This document shows positions 647 through 7,118 of a stretch of DNA of 7,777 bases, piece by piece; position 1 is the stretch's first letter, and every line of letters starts with the position of its first letter. The DNA lies in IMG/VR virus record IMGVR_UViG_3300000059_000049, positions 1-7,777 of that record. One strand, written 5' to 3'. Source of the DNA: a virus. Lineage: Duplodnaviria; Heunggongvirae; Uroviricota; Caudoviricetes. The notes beneath the pieces were generated by a model, which did not search any database, was not told where the DNA came from, and worked only from the letters and a program-made list of their open reading frames with translations. The position numbers were made by a program, and so were the translations under genes.

Positions 647-1336
647 CTATTCTTCCTCACATCCAAGATATGAAAGAGATGTAATTGCTTTCGCACGGAA
701 ACCACCAATATTCCTAAGCGCGCTTTTAAGTTCTTCAAGGTCAGATTGTGATTTGATCATGAAACTTAACCGCGCAATTCCAGACATAGAGTCAGAACCA
801 TTCACTGCGTTGTAGTGATATATGTATCGGGTGACTGATTGAGTCACGCCCTCCTGCTGGTGGTTTATATTGGCGTCCTGTCTTGTGTTGGCCTGCTCCA
901 ACTCTTCGATACGTTCAGCCATCGCAGCACACTCTTCAAAGTTGCTTAATGCTTTTCGCTCCGATTCAGCGCATTGTTTTTCCAGTTCTGCTATGCGCTT
1001 ACCTCCATCCACGATTACTCCCTCGTAATGCTCGCGCTGCTCGTTGAGTTTTGATTTTGCCGACTCCAGTTGTTTTGTTAGTTCCGCAATTCGGCAAACA
1101 TCGTTGATACGCGTTTCCTCTAATGCGTTGATCTCATCCAGTAGTGCCAAAGCAACCTTTGGATTAAAGGCAGCAATAAATTCAGCGTTGTTTTTCAGAA
1201 CGTGTTGCGCAATGGCCTGACTACTTAGTCGGACCTCATAACCACGTGCGCCACGGTGTGGTTTATATGAGTCCCAGTCTCCCCACGTTGCTTTCACTGC
1301 CGCCTCACGCAGTGCCTGGTAATTAATTTCGCTCAC
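647..1336 (-). CDS. Ea22-like (ead/Ea22 family) coiled-coil phage protein, 229 aa
   Basis: GTG start at 1334-1336 preceded by AGGAGG (spacing 6). N-terminus MSEINYQALREAA... shared with neighbouring paralogs; central segment predicted coiled-coil from sequence ([26 protein letters not shown]). Shares a 38-nt near-identical DNA segment with the 6256..6888 gene. Confidence 0.75.
   Translation of the reverse strand: MSEINYQALREAAVKATWGDWDSYKPHRGARGYEVRLSSQAIAQHVLKNNAEFIAAFNPKVALALLDEINALEETRINDVCRIAELTKQLESAKSKLNEQREHYEGVIVDGGKRIAELEKQCAESERKALSNFEECAAMAERIEELEQANTRQDANINHQQEGVTQSVTRYIYHYNAVNGSDSMSGIARLSFMIKSQSDLEELKSALRNIGGFRAKAITSLSYLGCEEE
1023..1060. repeat. 38-nt segment shared between Ea22-like paralogs (partner at 6560..6597)
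   Basis: tcgtaatgctcgcgctgctcgttgagttttgattttgc versus tcgtaatactcgcgttgctcgttgagttttgattttgc, 2 mismatches; encodes the KSKLNEQRE(H/Y)YEG segment in both proteins. Confidence 0.7.
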
Positions 1337-1792: not shown

Positions 1793-2034
1793 GCTTCCCA
1801 CGTTTTCAGACTTTCACCACAGAACGGGCAAAATGAAACTCGAATAGGCGATTTAGAAAATTCACCAGACCGCAGCATGATCAGGTCTTGTGAATGAATT
1901 AATGCATGGTTATAGATTTTGTATTTCAGCAGACCTTTTCGCGTCGTGTATTCAGCGTCATGCTCCAGGGATTGTGCCAACGCCGCGCACGGTTCTATCT
2001 TGTTGCCATTAATTTGGCATTTTGACTCACTCAC
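1768..2034 (-). CDS. small diverged Ea22-like N-terminal paralog, 88 aa, with C-terminal CPFCG motif
   Basis: GTG start at 2032-2034 preceded by AGGGGG. The 5' coding DNA (gtgagtgagtcaaaatgccaaattaatggc...) is a degenerate copy of the gtgagcaaaattaactatcaa... start of the two downstream paralogs; KINGNKIEPCAALAQS aligns with KINYQELREAAEQATQ. Confidence 0.55.
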   Translation of the reverse strand: MSESKCQINGNKIEPCAALAQSLEHDAEYTTRKGLLKYKIYNHALIHSQDLIMLRSGEFSKSPIRVSFCPFCGESLKTWEAEATSEQN

Positions 2035-2635
2035 TGGTTGCCCCCTGAATACGCTTAAACTCTATTACCCATACCCATGGATTAGCATTCCAGCTTTCTT
2101 CGCTATAAATTGATTTCCATAGACTTGTGAAGGTGTCTTTTGCATAAACCACCAGCTCTGTTGCCAGCCCCATCTTGTTTGGCTTTCCATCAGACCAACG
2201 GACACCTTCAGAGCGTGCATCTTTTTCACTGATGTCGTTCAGCCGTTCCACACGCACATCGGTAATTTCCAGAAGAATGCGTGATGCCCAGCGCGGCATG
2301 TGAATTGATGGCGTCCACTTTTCTGATACAGGTTTATTACAAACCTCGACCGGAACCCGGTGCGTTTGTTCTGTCCAGGAGTTACGCACGCTTGCGCGAT
2401 AAACCAGCGTTGCGACGTCCGTCGCTTTGCCATGCACACGGTAAGTTTCACGAACCCAAATACGATCGCCCGGTTGACCATATGGACAATGCTTGGCAAG
2501 CGACTCTGCGGCCACTGCCCGTCCATAGAATTTTTCTTCAACAATTCTGCGAGTCTGTGTTTTATTCCCGCCAAGAATTGCCCGGACCATTTCATCGTTA
2601 AAAATCATCCCGCGTTCTTTCATTTTTTGATCCAC
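2027..2635 (-). CDS. hypothetical phage protein, possibly ASCH/PUA-like fold (202 aa as drawn)
   Basis: ORF 4 nt after the stop of the upstream gene. Start is uncertain: GTG at 2633-2635, or ATG at 2621-2623 or 2606-2608. N-terminal MVRAILGGNKTQTRR resembles the ASCH GxKxxExR signature; this is motif-level resemblance only. Confidence 0.65.
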   Translation of the reverse strand: MDQKMKERGMIFNDEMVRAILGGNKTQTRRIVEEKFYGRAVAAESLAKHCPYGQPGDRIWVRETYRVHGKATDVATLVYRASVRNSWTEQTHRVPVEVCNKPVSEKWTPSIHMPRWASRILLEITDVRVERLNDISEKDARSEGVRWSDGKPNKMGLATELVVYAKDTFTSLWKSIYSEESWNANPWVWVIEFKRIQGATSE

Positions 2636-2639
2636 TCCA

Positions 2640-3635
2640 TCAGTTATTGAACGTGATCACTCCGCGCTCGATGGCGAAGTCGAAAAGCTGGTTAGCGGCT
2701 ACGTAAAGGCGTATGCCATGTGCTTTTTCCCATGCCCGGACATCGTTTTCTGCGCTTCTGGCGCATTCATCGCAAAGAGGAACGGCCCAGCGATCGTGTT
2801 CGTTTAACGAGCGGGCGCGGTACATGAACGGGTGATTAACTTTGCCACCGCATCCGATGCACGGACGAGAAATCACAAACCGGAGATAAGCCGGGCTTTT
2901 ACCGAGAACCGCTTTTGGTCGGCGCATATACAGCAGGCCGGAATCCTCATCTACAGACAGGTTGACGATCTGCTCTGCGGTTATGTCCACCAGCTCACGG
3001 GTGCTGTGCTCCCAGGTGATATCCGATTCTTTCAGTGTGCCGGTAGGGATTTCCTGTTTTGGCTGACAAAATGCAATGCGACCGGCTTCATCTGGCAGCT
3101 CGTCTTTCAGATTCCGGCGAATGGCCCAAAAAGTGAGTTCAACCATGCTCAGATCGCGTTCTGGCGGTAGTTTTAACTCGCTCGCAGCCCAGTTCATAAC
3201 CCAGTTGGCACGATTCAGGGATAACTGGTCGTCCAGCTTGCCGTACCCCTTCATCATGTATTCCGCATCATGCTTCCAGCACAGGCGAACGGCAGAGCCG
3301 TTATAGAAATGAGTGGTTAGCTGGTGGCTGCAATCGCGCTTATCGTGCGCCTGGCAATCGTGGATATTGGAACTTACCCAATGAACAAGCGAATCTTCAC
3401 CGCCCAACGCGTTAAATACGCGCTCGCTTTGAAAAAACGGTTTCAGAGACTGGTTGGCAACCAGCGAATAATTCAGATCCACTACGCCATCTGGCGTGTT
3501 TTCAGCCTGTTCACGCGGAAGTGGAGAGATAATGAAACGGCGACCTGCGCCAATGTAGTTACTGGTGGGCTTGTCTACCGGAAAGACAGCCACACCAGCT
3601 CCGTTTACGAAATGAGGTGTGATTATTGCACTCAT
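2640..3635 (-). CDS. phage protein with C-terminal HNH-like Cys/His zinc-binding cluster (possibly DUF968-type), 331 aa
   Basis: ATG at 3633-3635, first gene after the only intergenic gap. The C-terminal cluster, encoded at roughly 2700-2870, is PCIGCGG...NHPF...NEHDRW...PLCDEC...KAHG (CxxC, H, N/H, CxxC, H), typical of HNH/His-Me finger modules. The large N-terminal region is unassigned. Confidence 0.8.
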   Translation of the reverse strand: MSAIITPHFVNGAGVAVFPVDKPTSNYIGAGRRFIISPLPREQAENTPDGVVDLNYSLVANQSLKPFFQSERVFNALGGEDSLVHWVSSNIHDCQAHDKRDCSHQLTTHFYNGSAVRLCWKHDAEYMMKGYGKLDDQLSLNRANWVMNWAASELKLPPERDLSMVELTFWAIRRNLKDELPDEAGRIAFCQPKQEIPTGTLKESDITWEHSTRELVDITAEQIVNLSVDEDSGLLYMRRPKAVLGKSPAYLRFVISRPCIGCGGKVNHPFMYRARSLNEHDRWAVPLCDECARSAENDVRAWEKAHGIRLYVAANQLFDFAIERGVITFNN

Positions 3636-3739
3636 AATGTATACCGACTCTGTTTTGTTCCGAGCGGTAAAATAATATGTTAGAAAATTAAAATCAATAT
3701 TCTAACATCATTTTGAGTGCATAAACGATGTGTTCAGGA
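3636..3739 (-). promoter_or_regulatory. intergenic region with candidate promoter (TTGATT, ~17 bp, TATTTT on minus strand) for the 3635 gene
   Basis: Only gap over 10 nt in the whole gene block; AT-rich. The minus-strand sequence ...tattgattttaattttctaacatattattttaccg... contains -35-like and -10-like hexamers at plausible spacing, overlapping the inverted repeat at 3677..3708. Predicted by eye only. Confidence 0.3.
3677..3708. promoter_or_regulatory. perfect 9-bp inverted repeat ATGTTAGAA-N14-TTCTAACAT (candidate operator)
   Basis: Read directly: 3677-3685 ATGTTAGAA and 3700-3708 TTCTAACAT are exact reverse complements, separated by 14 nt. It lies between the phosphatase stop (3740) and the start of the next gene (3635). 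Confidence 0.45.
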
Positions 3740-4426
3740 TTACAACTGCCCTCCCTTCACCTGCTTTAGCGTCAGATTCCCGCAAAAAACCGCGCCAGTG
3801 TCTATGTAGTGCTGGTTCCAGAAAGATTTCGGGCTGTTTACTGGCGTATGCCCGAAAATAAAGCTATCTGCACCAGTGATTATTCCACCAACACCATCAA
3901 CCGCGTCATAAAATCGCTCACGCCGCCAGGTAACATTGAGATCGCTAACAGGTTTACCAAACTGGTATTCGTTATCAGGATAGTCGGCATGGGCTATAAC
4001 GATAGTTTCATGCCCGGTGTTCAGCTCAATGATATAGGGCAAACGTCTTACCAGCTCCACCAGCGCCCTGGCTAATATTTCCCGATCAGCGTCCAGCATG
4101 AAGAACCATTGACCACCATTCATTAGCCAGTTATTCACGTTGCCTGCGGGACTTAACGCATCGATCATTAATCGCTCGTGGTTTCCCATAACCGACCGAA
4201 ACCAGGGCATCTGCAATAGCTCCAGGCATTCAACATTTTCGGTGCCGCGATCGATAAGGTCGCCAACCGATATCAGTAAATCCTGTGTAGGGTCAAAATC
4301 CACACGATGGAGTTCATTCATAAGTAGGGTGTAGCAACCGTGCAAATCACCAACAACCCATATGTTTCTGTAGCCTGAACCATCAATACGGCTATATAAA
4401 TTCACTTCATGCAGCACCTGGGTCAT
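3740..4426 (-). CDS. serine/threonine protein phosphatase, lambda PPase (ORF221/NinI) / PrpA-PrpB family, 228 aa
   Basis: ATG at 4424-4426 overlaps the upstream stop (ATGA). Translation carries the calcineurin-like phosphoesterase motifs GDLHG, GDLIDRG, GNHE and, near the C-terminus, GHTP, and aligns along its length with my recollection of lambda phosphatase ([12 protein letters not shown]..., [34 protein letters not shown]). The longer TTG-initiated form from 4456 is rejected. Confidence 0.9.
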
Positions 4427-4734
4427 GCGGCAACCTTCTCCCGCAGCCAGATACAAACCGGACCATCTTCAGTGTCATGAATAGAGCCAACAAACCAGCC
4501 TTCGCCCTCTGGTCGCTCCGGTTCCCAGGCGGCAATATCGGGACCATCTGCGTCCAGATTAAAATCATCTTCATCCATAGTTTGGATGGTCCACTGAAGA
4601 TTATTTGCCTTCAACCATGCGTCAAATTCTTCCGTTGAAATATATTCACGCCCTGCACAAAACTTTTCATACTCCGGATGTGTCCAGCAGCCATATTCAT
4701 CACGTTCTACCGGCATTTCTTTAATGATGCTCAC
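4423..4734 (-). CDS. hypothetical acidic phage protein, 103 aa
   Basis: GTG start at 4732-4734 with GGAGGA 8 nt upstream, overlapping the upstream stop (GTGA). Acidic, Trp-rich sequence ([22 protein letters not shown]...). A DUF551-like C-terminus is possible but not established. Confidence 0.65.
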
Positions 4735-5227: not shown

Positions 5228-5934
5228 TGGCTGCCTCCTTTGCGAAGCTGTTCAGCAATACTTACGCATATCTCTGCGCCTCTAATCAGCCCCGGAACAT
5301 TCTTGTTTGGACCAACTTCACCATCGACAAAATCAATCATCGCGTTACGAGCCATATCCACGCCCTGCGCACGTACTTCAGCCAGGAAAGCATCGGTGGC
5401 TGGGGTGTCAACACGGATACTGTCGCGCAAGATGAAAAATGCATTGAGCATTCCAGTCTCTGGCACTTCATCCTGATGCTTCTCATACGCATCAAGAGCC
5501 TTCATCATCTCAGCTCCGAATGGTTGAGGGTGCACAGACTTCAGCTCCGCATTCTCCGCCGCCAGCACCGCGCGTTCGCTCTCCAGTTCTGTAATGCGCC
5601 GTCTTGCAGCATCCAGTTCAATCGACAATTTTTCCAACTGCTCTTTATGCTTCTTGTATTCCTGATATGCGTGCCAAGACTGACCTTTGCGCACACTATC
5701 CGTGATATCAGTAATCTGTTCTGGTGTTAGCGCGGTCAGTGCCTGTGCTGGGAAAATCAGCACTTTCCCGGAATCCCAATCAAAACCAGCGTGAATTGAC
5801 TGAACCTCAACTGAAGGTGTTGAACCAATGCTGCCAGGCGAATGAACAACGATCGTTACATCCATATCGCGACGATGGCTGTGGTTGTTGGACAAAATAC
5901 GATTCACCAACTCAGAAAATTTGGAAAATTTCAT
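5224..5934 (-). CDS. Ea22-like mosaic coiled-coil phage protein, 236 aa
   Basis: ATG at 5932-5934 overlaps the upstream stop (ATGA), AAGGGA upstream; the GTG-extended form from 5985 is rejected. Central segment predicted coiled-coil ([33 protein letters not shown]). C-terminal part paralogous to the 7115..7618 product ([12 protein letters not shown]; two near-identical DNA segments). Confidence 0.75.
5369..5403. repeat. 35-nt segment shared between paralogs (partner at 7347..7381)
   Basis: gcacgtacttcagccaggaaagcatcggtggctgg versus gcacgtatttcagccaggaaagcgtcggtggctgg, 2 mismatches; encodes PATDAFLAE(V/I)RA. A second shared segment lies at 5549..5574 and 7509..7534 (26 nt, 1 mismatch). Confidence 0.7.
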
Positions 5935-6254
5935 GCTGATTCCCTTTGCTCTTCCTGGATAATGTTGTTGCAATCTTTCACGCACTCGTTGCAGATGAAA
6001 ACGTTGTCCCCGGCAATTAACTTTTTAACGGTGTGCTGGGATTTGTTGCAGAAGCTGCAATAAAGCGTTGGACTGGCTGATACGGATGGTGCGCCAGATG
6101 TCAGCCGCGCGATGTCGTTCTTGCGACGCAATATCACACGGCTGCACTCGACCAGCATCTCCGGGGATATATCCTCCTCCGTGGCGAGCGCCTCCAGACG
6201 TTCGAGCAAGCGAAATACTTTTTCCTGGGTGATTGCAGAATGCGATGTGGTCAT
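5931..6254 (-). CDS. small phage protein with C-terminal ClpX-type C4 zinc-finger (ClpX zinc-binding-domain-like), 107 aa
   Basis: ATG at 6252-6254 with AAGGAG 6 nt upstream, 1 nt after the upstream stop. C-terminal [39 protein letters not shown] (encoded at roughly 5950-6070) matches, from memory, the E. coli ClpX N-terminal zinc-binding domain [40 protein letters not shown], including all four Cys. The N-terminal ~60 aa are unrelated; the AAA+ module is absent. Confidence 0.75.
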
Positions 6255-6255
6255 C

Positions 6256-6888
6256 TCACTCTCCTTTGATGCGAATGCCAGGGGCGCGTGGCACATTAAC
6301 TTCCACGATGCGCACAGTTGGTTTGTACATCTCAATTGCTGTCAGCCAGTCAGCTCCTGTCATGCGCTTTTCCGCATCGCCATTAGTCCACTGAACCGGT
6401 ACACCAATAGCCTTCATCGCGATTTCTATTTCCCCGGCAATGGCGCTTTTTCCGCAACCAGTAAAACCAGAAACAACGACAAGAACTTCACCTTTGGCTG
6501 GTTTTATTTCCCGTGCTTCCAGTTCTGCAATACGCTTACTCCCATCCGAGATAACACCTTCGTAATACTCGCGTTGCTCGTTGAGTTTTGATTTTGCTTC
6601 CTCAAGCTCAACACGCAGCTTCCCTACCGTTAGCGCAATATCCTCGTTCTCCTGGTCACGGCGTTTGATGTATTGCTGGTTTCTTTCCCGTTCATCCAGT
6701 AGTGCCAGCACGGTTTCTGGTCCGGCCAGAAATTTGAAGGCGTTGAGCGCATCAATATCCACACCGTAATCTTTAAGTTCCTGTTCACTTATCAGATCAT
6801 CATCAACTGGCAACATTAACAGGCGTTCCATTGCCGGAATTGCACGTTCTGCCGCCTCACGCAGCGCCAGTGTGTCGATATTGCTCAT
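6256..6888 (-). CDS. Ea22-like coiled-coil phage protein with a Walker-A-like GxxGxGKS motif in its C-terminal part, 210 aa
   Basis: ATG at 6886-6888 with GAGGAGG upstream, overlapping the upstream stop (ATGA). N-terminus [16 protein letters not shown]; [13 protein letters not shown] segment shared with 647..1336 (38-nt DNA repeat). [18 protein letters not shown] is encoded at about 6430-6475. The longer form from 6912 is rejected. Confidence 0.75.
6560..6597. repeat. 38-nt segment shared between Ea22-like paralogs (partner at 1023..1060)
   Basis: See partner at 1023..1060; read directly from the sequence. Confidence 0.7.
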
Positions 6889-7118
6889 TGTGCCTCCTCG
6901 ATTTCGTCCCATTCCACCCAGGCATTCTCTCCATCAGCATCGATTTCGCCTTTGTGACCGCATTTGGAACAGACGGCCTCATCACCCGCCCACAAAGAAT
7001 CTTTGGTTACCGACCATCCTGTTACCTTGGCTTTGCCGTGCTGGCACTTAGGGCAATCATCAAGCCATTCGACTTCGACCGTTGACGGACCAAATCCATG
7101 TTCAGTTCGGATGCTCAT
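6885..7118 (-). CDS. small zinc-ribbon protein (two CxxC pairs) with acidic C-terminus, 77 aa
   Basis: ATG at 7116-7118 overlaps the upstream stop (ATGA), AAGGAG 8 nt upstream. DDCPKCQHGKAKV...CSKCGHKGEI gives a CxxC-N26-CxxC zinc-ribbon pattern; ends EWDEIEEAQ. Confidence 0.7.
   Translation of the reverse strand: MSIRTEHGFGPSTVEVEWLDDCPKCQHGKAKVTGWSVTKDSLWAGDEAVCSKCGHKGEIDADGENAWVEWDEIEEAQ

Follow-up and report, generated by a model that had tools for sequence, protein, structure and literature searches.

Within a 7,777-nucleotide (nt) stretch of viral DNA (IMG/VR record IMGVR_UViG_3300000059_000049; the whole stretch is called the window below), two adjacent minus-strand genes lie behind a 104-nt intergenic gap. 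The first codes for a 331-residue protein of the DUF968 (YdfU/PdcB) family, and the second codes for a protein with an ASCH fold. An initial interpretation made from the letters of the DNA (the sequence-only reading) had proposed that these genes form a modified-base-sensing nuclease pair behind a palindromic operator of their own. On the basis of the analyses described herein, we consider the locus rather more likely to comprise early accessory genes of a D6-like phage-plasmid that are repressed by C1, among them a probable HNH nuclease and a probable base-modification hydrolase. The features on which this interpretation is built are listed below.

2640 to 3635, minus strand: DUF968 gene, 331 residues, YdfU/PdcB family (Pfam DUF968; PHROG_96 ‘HNH endonuclease’)
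2661 to 2879, minus strand: C-terminal Cys4 zinc-finger/His-Me (HNH-type) core, residues ~253-325
3156 to 3470, minus strand: N-terminal helical domain plus beta-hairpin, residues ~56-160, possible second metal site
2027 to 2623, minus strand: gene for the ASCH-fold protein, 198 residues, PHROG_874 (the open reading frame (ORF) extended to GTG 2635 gives 202 residues)
2546 to 2569, minus strand: ASCH octapeptide G23-N-K25-T-Q-T28-R-R30 (GxKTxTxR, the ‘GKTR’ YqfB type)
3636 to 3739, no strand assigned: regulatory intergenic region, 104 nt, that separates the ppp-like phosphatase gene from the DUF968 gene
3674 to 3690, minus strand: predicted gene-proximal D6-type C1 operator, TAATTTTCTAACATATT, with an exact TTTCTAACA and a fit to the D6 consensus TAgTTTTCTAACACAat
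3695 to 3711, plus strand: predicted distal D6-type C1 operator, inverted, CAATATTCTAACATCAT, one mismatch to TTTCTAACA
3669 to 3697, minus strand: candidate sigma-70 promoter, weak, TTGATT-17-TATTTT, recognized by eye
3627 to 3721, minus strand: speculative long-range RNA stem with arms 3709-3721 and 3627-3639, the 13-nt arms being 92% complementary

Gene order and replicon context

The sizeable ORFs of the window all occupy the minus strand and follow one another tightly, end to end. A 2.8-kb segment around the two genes exhibits 98.9% identity to Escherichia coli plasmid pMUB-MIN14-1 and 92-97% identity to many other plasmids of ~90 kb, and it is syntenic with phage D6, which is a P1-related phage-plasmid. 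Along the direction of transcription, the genes are arranged as follows.

DUF4752 gene, then two small ORFs
3740 to 4456: Ppp/NinI-like Ser/Thr phosphatase gene
104-nt gap
2640 to 3635: DUF968 gene
2027 to 2635: ASCH gene
1768 to 2034: upf87.4-like gene
Ead/Ea22-like genes

In the closest plasmid, the entire gene block is located downstream of a promoter region that is divergent from ref. The ORFs downstream of the ASCH gene overlap that gene and one another, and a promoter and terminator scan revealed no terminator-like site after the ASCH gene. The transcription unit is larger than the two genes originally proposed to form a pair. An Rfam search of the window matched no RNA family, and base composition across the DUF968 and ASCH genes is unremarkable.

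Proposed paired operators in the intergenic gap

The sequence-only reading had noted a single intergenic gap, and the region from 3636 to 3739 is indeed the sole gap longer than ~6 nt between the minus-strand ORFs of the window; it is conserved in pMUB-MIN14-1, in ECdb0009_p7 and in phage D6. The perfect inverted repeat that had been described there is also present. This palindrome, ATGTTAGAA-N14-TTCTAACAT, spans positions 3677-3708 and can be drawn either with perfect arms of 9 nt or with arms of 13 nt that match at 92% of positions. No match to it was obtained in 200 shuffled sequences, and therefore it is not a product of chance. Each arm carries the string TTCTAAC.

A half-site search that began with this palindrome led us to a D6-type operator. 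In the 91-kb D6 genome, the half-site TTTCTAACA occurs 12 times, whereas 0.87 copies are expected and the maximum in 200 first-order Markov simulations was 3. The earlier proposal of a private operator, and thus of separate regulation for the two genes, does not survive this result, given that the half-site belongs to a genome-wide C1-type set. Candidate sites in D6 are at 194, 8915, 9071, 10320, 11363, 21265, 54206, 64111, 75975, 76635, 80704, 80727 and 89943, and their genetic contexts are as follows.

D6 194: just upstream of c1
D6 10320: upstream of pmgS
D6 21265: upstream of icd-ant
D6 54206: between the capsid gene and orf52
D6 64111: upstream of hrdC-dmt
D6 75975: downstream of ref
D6 76635: in the ref/orf88 divergent region
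D6 80704 and 80727: upstream of a pdcB-like gene
D6 89943: upstream of the orf117 operon
D6, two further sites: in a non-coding stretch past the tRNA genes
D6, one further site: within a pmgM-like gene

Several of these genes have counterparts whose control by C1 is annotated in P1 or P7, namely c1, pmgR-pmgS (the sht operon in P7) and the hea operon of P7. As with the C1 operators of P1, D6 carries a recurrent, asymmetric site of ~17 bp that precedes c1 as well as early or accessory operons. The D6 consensus TAgTTTTCTAACACAat and the P1 consensus ATTGCTCTAATAAATtt, the latter derived from ten annotated P1 operators, have a TCTAA core in common. When D6 was scanned with the P1 consensus at up to four mismatches, only three poor sites were found, which indicates that D6-type elements use a different operator sequence. 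The near-absence of P1-consensus sites also fits with heteroimmunity between D6-like elements and P1.

On the basis of these comparisons, we interpret the palindrome as a pair of D6-type C1 immunity operators positioned over an internal promoter; the recurrence of the site was computed, and binding by C1 and promoter activity are inferred. The distal site begins 21 bp from the proximal site, and the same offset is found for an inverted pair of sites that the closest plasmid carries in its ref-divergent region (12786/12807). The candidate promoter consists of TTGATT at 3692-3697, a 17-nt spacer and TATTTT at 3669-3674, and the proximal operator overlaps both the spacer and the -10 element. This partly bears out the promoter-like sequence mentioned in the sequence-only reading: 8 of 12 positions agree with the sigma-70 consensus when the elements are aligned by eye.

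The arrangement resembles that of the P1 operators, which are asymmetric sites of 17 bp that occur singly or in pairs (e.g. OpmgRa/OpmgRb and Oc1ab). Both sets comprise multiple copies upstream of early genes and c1, share the TCTAA core, overlap promoters and include an inverted pair after ppp; in P1, the OpmgRa/OpmgRb pair is located just after ppp-pmgQ. The flanking bases differ (TTTTCTAACACA versus TTGCTCTAATAA), and the sites of the window are non-overlapping, with starts 21 bp apart. We suspect that the difference in flanking bases reflects a different immunity specificity.

A second useful comparison is provided by P7, in which the ASCH homologue Upf86.8 (83% identical to the ASCH protein of the window) is the first gene product encoded past the annotated operator Op(hea), and is likewise followed by upf87.4 and Ead-like genes. 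The string ATATTGATTTT is common to the promoter region of the window and to the P7 region directly after Op(hea), such that the ASCH gene of P7 is preceded by an annotated C1 operator together with this promoter string. P7 differs from the window in that its operator is single and of the P1 type (ATTGCTCTAATAAATAT), and in that no DUF968 gene separates this operator from the ASCH gene.

Palindromes can also function in RNA, and we considered whether this one acts mainly at that level, either as a weak terminator or attenuator after ppp or as a leader that masks the DUF968 start codon. A read-through leader does fold unusually well. The minimum free energy structure of 3745-3600 (minus strand) has a predicted stability of -35 kcal/mol (z -3.9), none of 200 shuffled sequences is as stable, and the structure includes the long-range stem noted above. 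The palindrome forms an inner hairpin that is followed by AUUAUUUUA, and the outer stem pairs the AUG. However, the hairpin is AT-rich and was not called as terminator-like, and a four-sequence alignment exhibits no covariation. Moreover, an RNA hairpin would not explain why the half-site appears 12 times in D6, mostly as single copies near genes with annotated C1 operators in P1 or P7. A predominantly RNA-level role is therefore improbable in our judgement, although RNA and operator roles are not mutually exclusive.

If transcripts read through from ppp, the stem formed by UGCACUCAAAAUG and CAUUAUGAGUGCA would pair the AUG of the DUF968 gene. Transcripts that start from the internal promoter would be missing the 5' arm of this stem, and translation of DUF968 might thereby be limited to transcripts from its own promoter.

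The DUF968 protein

The sequence-only reading had pointed to a C-terminal Cys/His cluster in the 331-residue product and had called it HNH-like, and both observations are upheld. The protein matches Pfam DUF968, a His-Me/HNH family, over residues 161-325 (E 1e-44; 153.1 bits against a cut-off of 27.8; full model 1-171), and matches PHROG_96 ‘HNH endonuclease’ over its full length (6e-103). Published analysis places DUF968 and DUF1364/YbcO in group 7 of the His-Me finger superfamily (PMC5714182). The C-terminus reads RPC259IGC262GGKVNH268PFMYRARSLNEH280DRWAVPLC288DEC291ARSAENDVRAWEKAH309G. Of the residues numbered here, C259, C262, H280, C288 and C291 are invariant in an alignment of 18 sequences with identities down to 47%, whereas H268 and H309 are variable. 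The region carries the zinc-binding CxxC...CxxC pair and the conserved His of a beta-beta-alpha-metal fold, and the HNH/His-Me assignment is supported. A conserved N-terminal domain is also present, in which C94, Q95, C119, W120, H122 and D123 are invariant.

The gene product is 98% identical to D6 orf98, which is annotated as ‘similar to P1 pdcB’. Translated searches (tblastn) identified full-length YdfU/PdcB homologues in 175 phage records, at 25-38% identity across residues 1-328. P1-like phages, in which the protein is PdcB, are among them, as are numerous lambdoid and Stx phages (YdfU), and in the latter the gene is located near the replication genes O/P, Q, RusA and methylase genes. PdcB of P1 and YdfU of the Qin prophage share with the protein of the window full-length homology, the same Pfam domain, the same Cys4 plus His core and a phage or prophage origin; a named structural relative of the family is DUF1364/YbcO (PDB 3g27). 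Their genetic contexts differ. P1 pdcB follows phd-doc-pdcA and the lambdoid ydfU gene resides in the nin region, whereas the gene of the window follows ppp and is located behind the C1 operator pair.

We consider the C-terminus to be a Cys4-zinc His-Me (HNH) module that is structurally closest to the nuclease Ref of P1, a RecA-dependent HNH nuclease (PDB 3plw). The resemblance to Ref is distant: identity is 12%, and the hhalign match is not significant, with the similarity to a Ref homologue falling on the C-terminal PCxxC...PLC segment. The DUF968 protein also has an additional conserved N-terminal domain of ~250 residues. A lambda-Orf-like N-terminal domain, as reported for DUF968 proteins of Gram-positive bacteria (PMC4118853), was undetected in the protein of the window. 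The protein is a probable DNA-processing or recombination HNH nuclease.

The start codon is likely ATG 3635, given that M1, P7 and G14 are invariant in homologues with identities as low as 47%. In RefSeq, the corresponding gene of the closest plasmid (6908-7861 of the sequence compared) begins at GTG 3593, 42 nt downstream, and yields 317 residues, whereas the D6 annotation gives 331. The RefSeq start is probably too short because the 14 upstream residues (MSAIITP...G) are conserved and the D6 protein has 331 residues.

The ASCH-fold protein

For the adjacent product, the sequence-only reading had noted an ILGGNKTQTRR segment that resembles the ASCH signature of the PUA-like superfamily. This segment is present at residues 20-30 of the 202-residue ORF (2027-2635, minus strand), and the call has held. 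An AlphaFold model computed from a 54-sequence alignment is confident (mean predicted local distance difference test score (pLDDT) 90.3) and exhibits the beta-barrel fold of ASCH domains, and the N-terminal octapeptide conforms to GxKxx(T/E)xR. Weak matches to Pfam ASCH were obtained for 29 of 54 diverse relatives (best E 6.8e-4). The sole Pfam match of the protein of the window at E<=10 was Pyridox_oxase_2, which we rejected as spurious. ATG 2623, giving 198 residues, is probably the start codon because RefSeq uses it and most relatives begin with MKERP. The family is large, comprising 44,761 clusters at 50% identity (E<=1e-3) and 361 phage records.

The conservation pattern of this family is reminiscent of an enzyme. 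All 54 relatives share K25, T28, R29 and R30, and at least 90% of them have E143. YqfB-type N4-acetylcytidine (ac4C) amidohydrolases have a ‘GKTR’ motif and the functional residues K21, T24, E74 and R26 (PMC6972931; bioRxiv 10.64898/2026.02.27.708502), of which K21, T24 and E74 are catalytic and R26 provides the oxyanion function (bioRxiv 10.64898/2026.02.27.708502). An hhalign comparison with the YqfB sequence, which we checked against PDB entry 1te7, places ASCH residues 7-31 on YqfB 3-27, such that K25 corresponds to K21, T28 to T24 and R30 to R26. In a global alignment, E143 falls on E74 and VIEFK falls on VIEFK. Judged by sequence and fold, the complete YqfB-type set of Lys, Thr and Glu plus the oxyanion Arg is present.

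Compared with E. coli YqfB (PDB 1te7 and 9kyf), the ASCH protein is about twice as large, with insertions at approximately residues 66-120 and 145-186; its 198-202 residues contrast with the ~103-110 residues of the single-domain YqfB type. It also carries an invariant E63 and the sequence PSIHMPRWASR, both absent from YqfB, and it is phage-borne and predicted to be under C1 control. On account of the doubled size and the family-specific invariant elements, we do not regard it as a YqfB orthologue; it appears to be YqfB-like in motif only. With its retained catalytic-type GxKTxTxR motif, the protein looks more like an enzyme than a passive reader, and it is a probable hydrolase whose substrate would be a base, acylated or modified in another way, within a nucleoside, tRNA or DNA.

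The motif PSIHMPRWASR (residues 109-119; window ~2279-2311, minus strand) is the most conserved of the family and is located inside an insertion in the ASCH barrel. R119 is invariant, and P109-R115, A117 and S118 are conserved in at least 90% of sequences. This element may form part of a substrate- or phosphate-binding site.

Given that ASCH domains have been predicted to bind modified bases, and that fusions and shared operons with N6A methyltransferases have been reported for them (PMC4738411), we also considered whether the protein is a non-catalytic reader of N6-methyladenine (m6A) or otherwise modified nucleic acid that works with phage methyltransferases or recombination functions, independently of DUF968. 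Homologues do adjoin methyltransferase genes in phages F116 and RothD, and among 150 immediate same-strand neighbours of ASCH genes, nine belong to methyltransferase families (Dam 3, MT-A70 3, DNA_methylase 1, Methyltransf_25 2). Such neighbours are nevertheless a small minority, Pfam and PHROG profile searches revealed no methyltransferase gene in the window, and the invariance of K25, T28 and R30, along with near-invariance of E143, matches the catalytic residues of YqfB. A reader function of this kind is unlikely, if less so than a mainly RNA-level role for the palindrome.

A more specific version of the hydrolase proposal is that this phage branch of ASCH proteins functions as an early ‘eraser’ that removes an acyl group or other modification from host tRNA (e.g. 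ac4C34 of elongator tRNA-Met), from nucleotides or from DNA, and in this manner reprograms translation or evades modification-sensing defence. In D6-like elements, such an activity would perhaps be tied to the YdfU/PdcB HNH protein. We regard this scenario as speculative, with odds only slightly better than those of a non-catalytic reader.

The homologue Upf86.8 of P7 is labelled ‘DNA primase’ in RefSeq NC_050152, and UniRef relatives are labelled ‘Morphogenetic protein’. These labels look wrong, as neither would fit the modelled ASCH fold.

Independent occurrence of the two genes

Each of the two genes occurs without the other far more often than the two occur side by side. D6 lacks exactly the ASCH gene: homology to the window is lost at 2637 and picks up again at 2013. 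In P7, the ASCH gene is present with no DUF968 gene beside it. Among 5,426 complete E. coli genomes, this DUF968 gene is carried by 99 replicons, of which 48 have the D6-type junction that lacks ASCH and seven have the junction seen in the window. A query spanning the junction was partly matched by 235 replicons, compared with 101 that match the DUF968 gene at all, so at least 134 replicons match the ASCH side only.

The same independence is evident among viruses more broadly. A DUF968 homologue is located within 5 kb at only 3 of 80 diverse viral ASCH loci, and two of these three are D6-like elements. The 150 immediate same-strand neighbours mentioned above include DksA/TraR zinc fingers (13), RecT (9), DUF4060 (6) and PNKP-type HAD proteins (4), and DUF968 accounts for two. 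In individual phages, the ASCH gene adjoins EaE/EaF (SPN9TCW), a small HNH gene (AH07) or, as in RothD and F116, methyltransferase genes.

Two D6-like contigs combine a DUF968 gene at 96-99% identity to that of the window with an ASCH gene at only 46-50% identity. Homology in these contigs breaks ~90 nt into the ASCH gene (window ~2546-2550), at the region coding for the conserved octapeptide. A break at this position has the appearance of a typical mosaic junction.

We observed that the ASCH slot following the DUF968 gene is sometimes followed in turn by a gene of the PAPS-reductase family, as in the plasmid of strain MINF_7C. In Vibrio phage pVa-1 (KX581095.3), an ASCH-family gene (6471-7076) and a YdfU-like DUF968 gene (20527-21522) are both present and are 14 kb apart.

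These distributions bear directly on the function that was first proposed, wherein recognition of a modified base by the ASCH protein would guide the HNH protein to cleave modified DNA, the two genes being a type IV-like restriction or DNA-processing module with its own operator. The proposal has a precedent in enzymes such as TspA15I/VcaM4I, ScoMcrA and EcoKMcrA, which combine a fold of the PUA superfamily with an HNH nuclease (PMC6765204). Those enzymes, however, are single fused polypeptides with readers of the SRA, EVE or SBD type and are found in cellular defence contexts, whereas in the window there are two separable genes, an enzyme-like ASCH domain that retains YqfB-type catalytic residues, and predicted control by a prophage repressor. 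Reader and nuclease are neither fused nor encoded in a conserved operon, and only a minority of D6-like replicons have the two genes side by side. Searches against PADLOC defence models gave no match for either protein at E<=0.01. Furthermore, a C1-type operator implies that the genes are off in the lysogen, whereas a defence system carried by a prophage would need the reverse. For these reasons, we judge a type IV-like defence role to be highly improbable, the least credible of the explanations weighed here.

The DUF968 and ASCH genes do not appear to be an obligate pair, and their products need not act together. Most likely, they are two unrelated early accessory genes juxtaposed by chance in a mosaic region.

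A model for the locus and its merits

In the explanation we favour, the window belongs to a long operon of early accessory genes, on the minus strand, in a D6-like phage-plasmid related to P1. The two inverted D6-type operators for the master repressor C1 would overlap a weak internal promoter in the gap, such that the downstream genes (DUF968, ASCH, upf87.4-like, Ead/Ea22-like and others beyond) would be silent in the plasmid-prophage state and would be activated along with the remainder of the C1 regulon upon infection or induction. The HNH protein of the YdfU/PdcB type would then cut or process DNA in phage replication or recombination, a role also suggested by the location of its relatives in lambdoid nin regions. 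The ASCH gene would be a separately mobile cassette whose product, bearing the Lys, Thr, Arg and Glu of YqfB-type N4-acylcytidine amidohydrolases, may hydrolyse a modified base. In this scheme, the family and fold assignments and the independent occurrence of the genes are tool results, and the enzyme activities and substrates are our proposals.

Several observations weigh against this explanation. The promoter is weak, and a sigma-70 scan with a threshold of at least 9 of 12 consensus matches called nothing in the gap. In D6-like elements, highly divergent ASCH alleles (99, 81, 50 and 46% identity) are found 4 nt past a nearly invariant DUF968 gene, and their constant slot after DUF968 could hint at some functional link. 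We gave low weight to conserved functional coupling at this slot, as the break within the ASCH gene and the precise absence of the gene from D6 are indicative of phage mosaicism.

Other reservations concern the proteins. Profile searches and structure prediction, which the sequence-only reading had put forward as checks, succeeded in part. The former gave the DUF968 match and no score against Pfam ASCH (PF04266) for the ASCH protein of the window, even at E<=10; the latter gave a confident ASCH model and, for the 331-residue protein, a moderate one (pLDDT 65.9; good for residues 60-180 and 250-320) with no Foldseek match in the PDB at E<1. Sequence searches of the PDB with both proteins and with the ASCH family profile found nothing, and NCBIfam yielded no match for either protein. 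The alignment of the ASCH protein with YqfB is not significant alone (z 2.1), and when the family is compared with the single YqfB sequence by hhalign, only the N-terminal 25 residues align, with low probability. The ~90 extra residues and the invariant PSIHMPRWASR, absent from YqfB, mean that the substrate could differ greatly. In the weak hhalign comparison of DUF968 with Ref, the HH position of Ref is not His in DUF968, which makes the catalytic geometry uncertain. Lastly, our literature search found no experiment on any member of the DUF968 or ASCH family and no functional study of YdfU; YdfU/PdcB proteins are annotated as ‘unknown function’, and the P1 record describes PdcB as ‘unknown function; 25% identical to P76162’ (i.e. 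YdfU).

Both families were already known, though experimentally uncharacterised, and the proteins of the window add new members to them. What is reported here amounts to routine annotation of accessory genes in a phage-plasmid, together with corrections to the operator, to the proposed pair and to database labels. Nevertheless, the D6-type C1 operator consensus and the accompanying regulon map should help predict which cargo genes are silent in the carrier state of these phage-plasmids, which are widespread in E. coli and Salmonella. A huge phage ASCH subfamily keeps the catalytic residues of ac4C amidohydrolases, and the protein is present in hundreds of temperate phages. Following recent reports that ASCH proteins erase ac4C from tRNA, the predicted hydrolase activity is the most testable point of our model.

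Other features of the operon

Three Ead/Ea22-like paralogues are encoded on the minus strand of the window (647-1336, 1323-1781 and 6256-6912), and they have in common the N-terminal repeat INYQ.LREAAE.... Short DNA repeats accompany them, as exemplified by 1286-1348 and 1629-1792, both of which align with the same target in one D6-like contig. This repeat region is probably a substrate for recombination inside the operon.

For the small ORF at 5931-6335 (minus strand), the annotation of the closest plasmid reads ClpX C4-type zinc-finger protein; the ORF belongs to PHROG_6797 and has a weak ‘protease’ PHROG match. Its product may serve as a decoy or adaptor for host ClpX.

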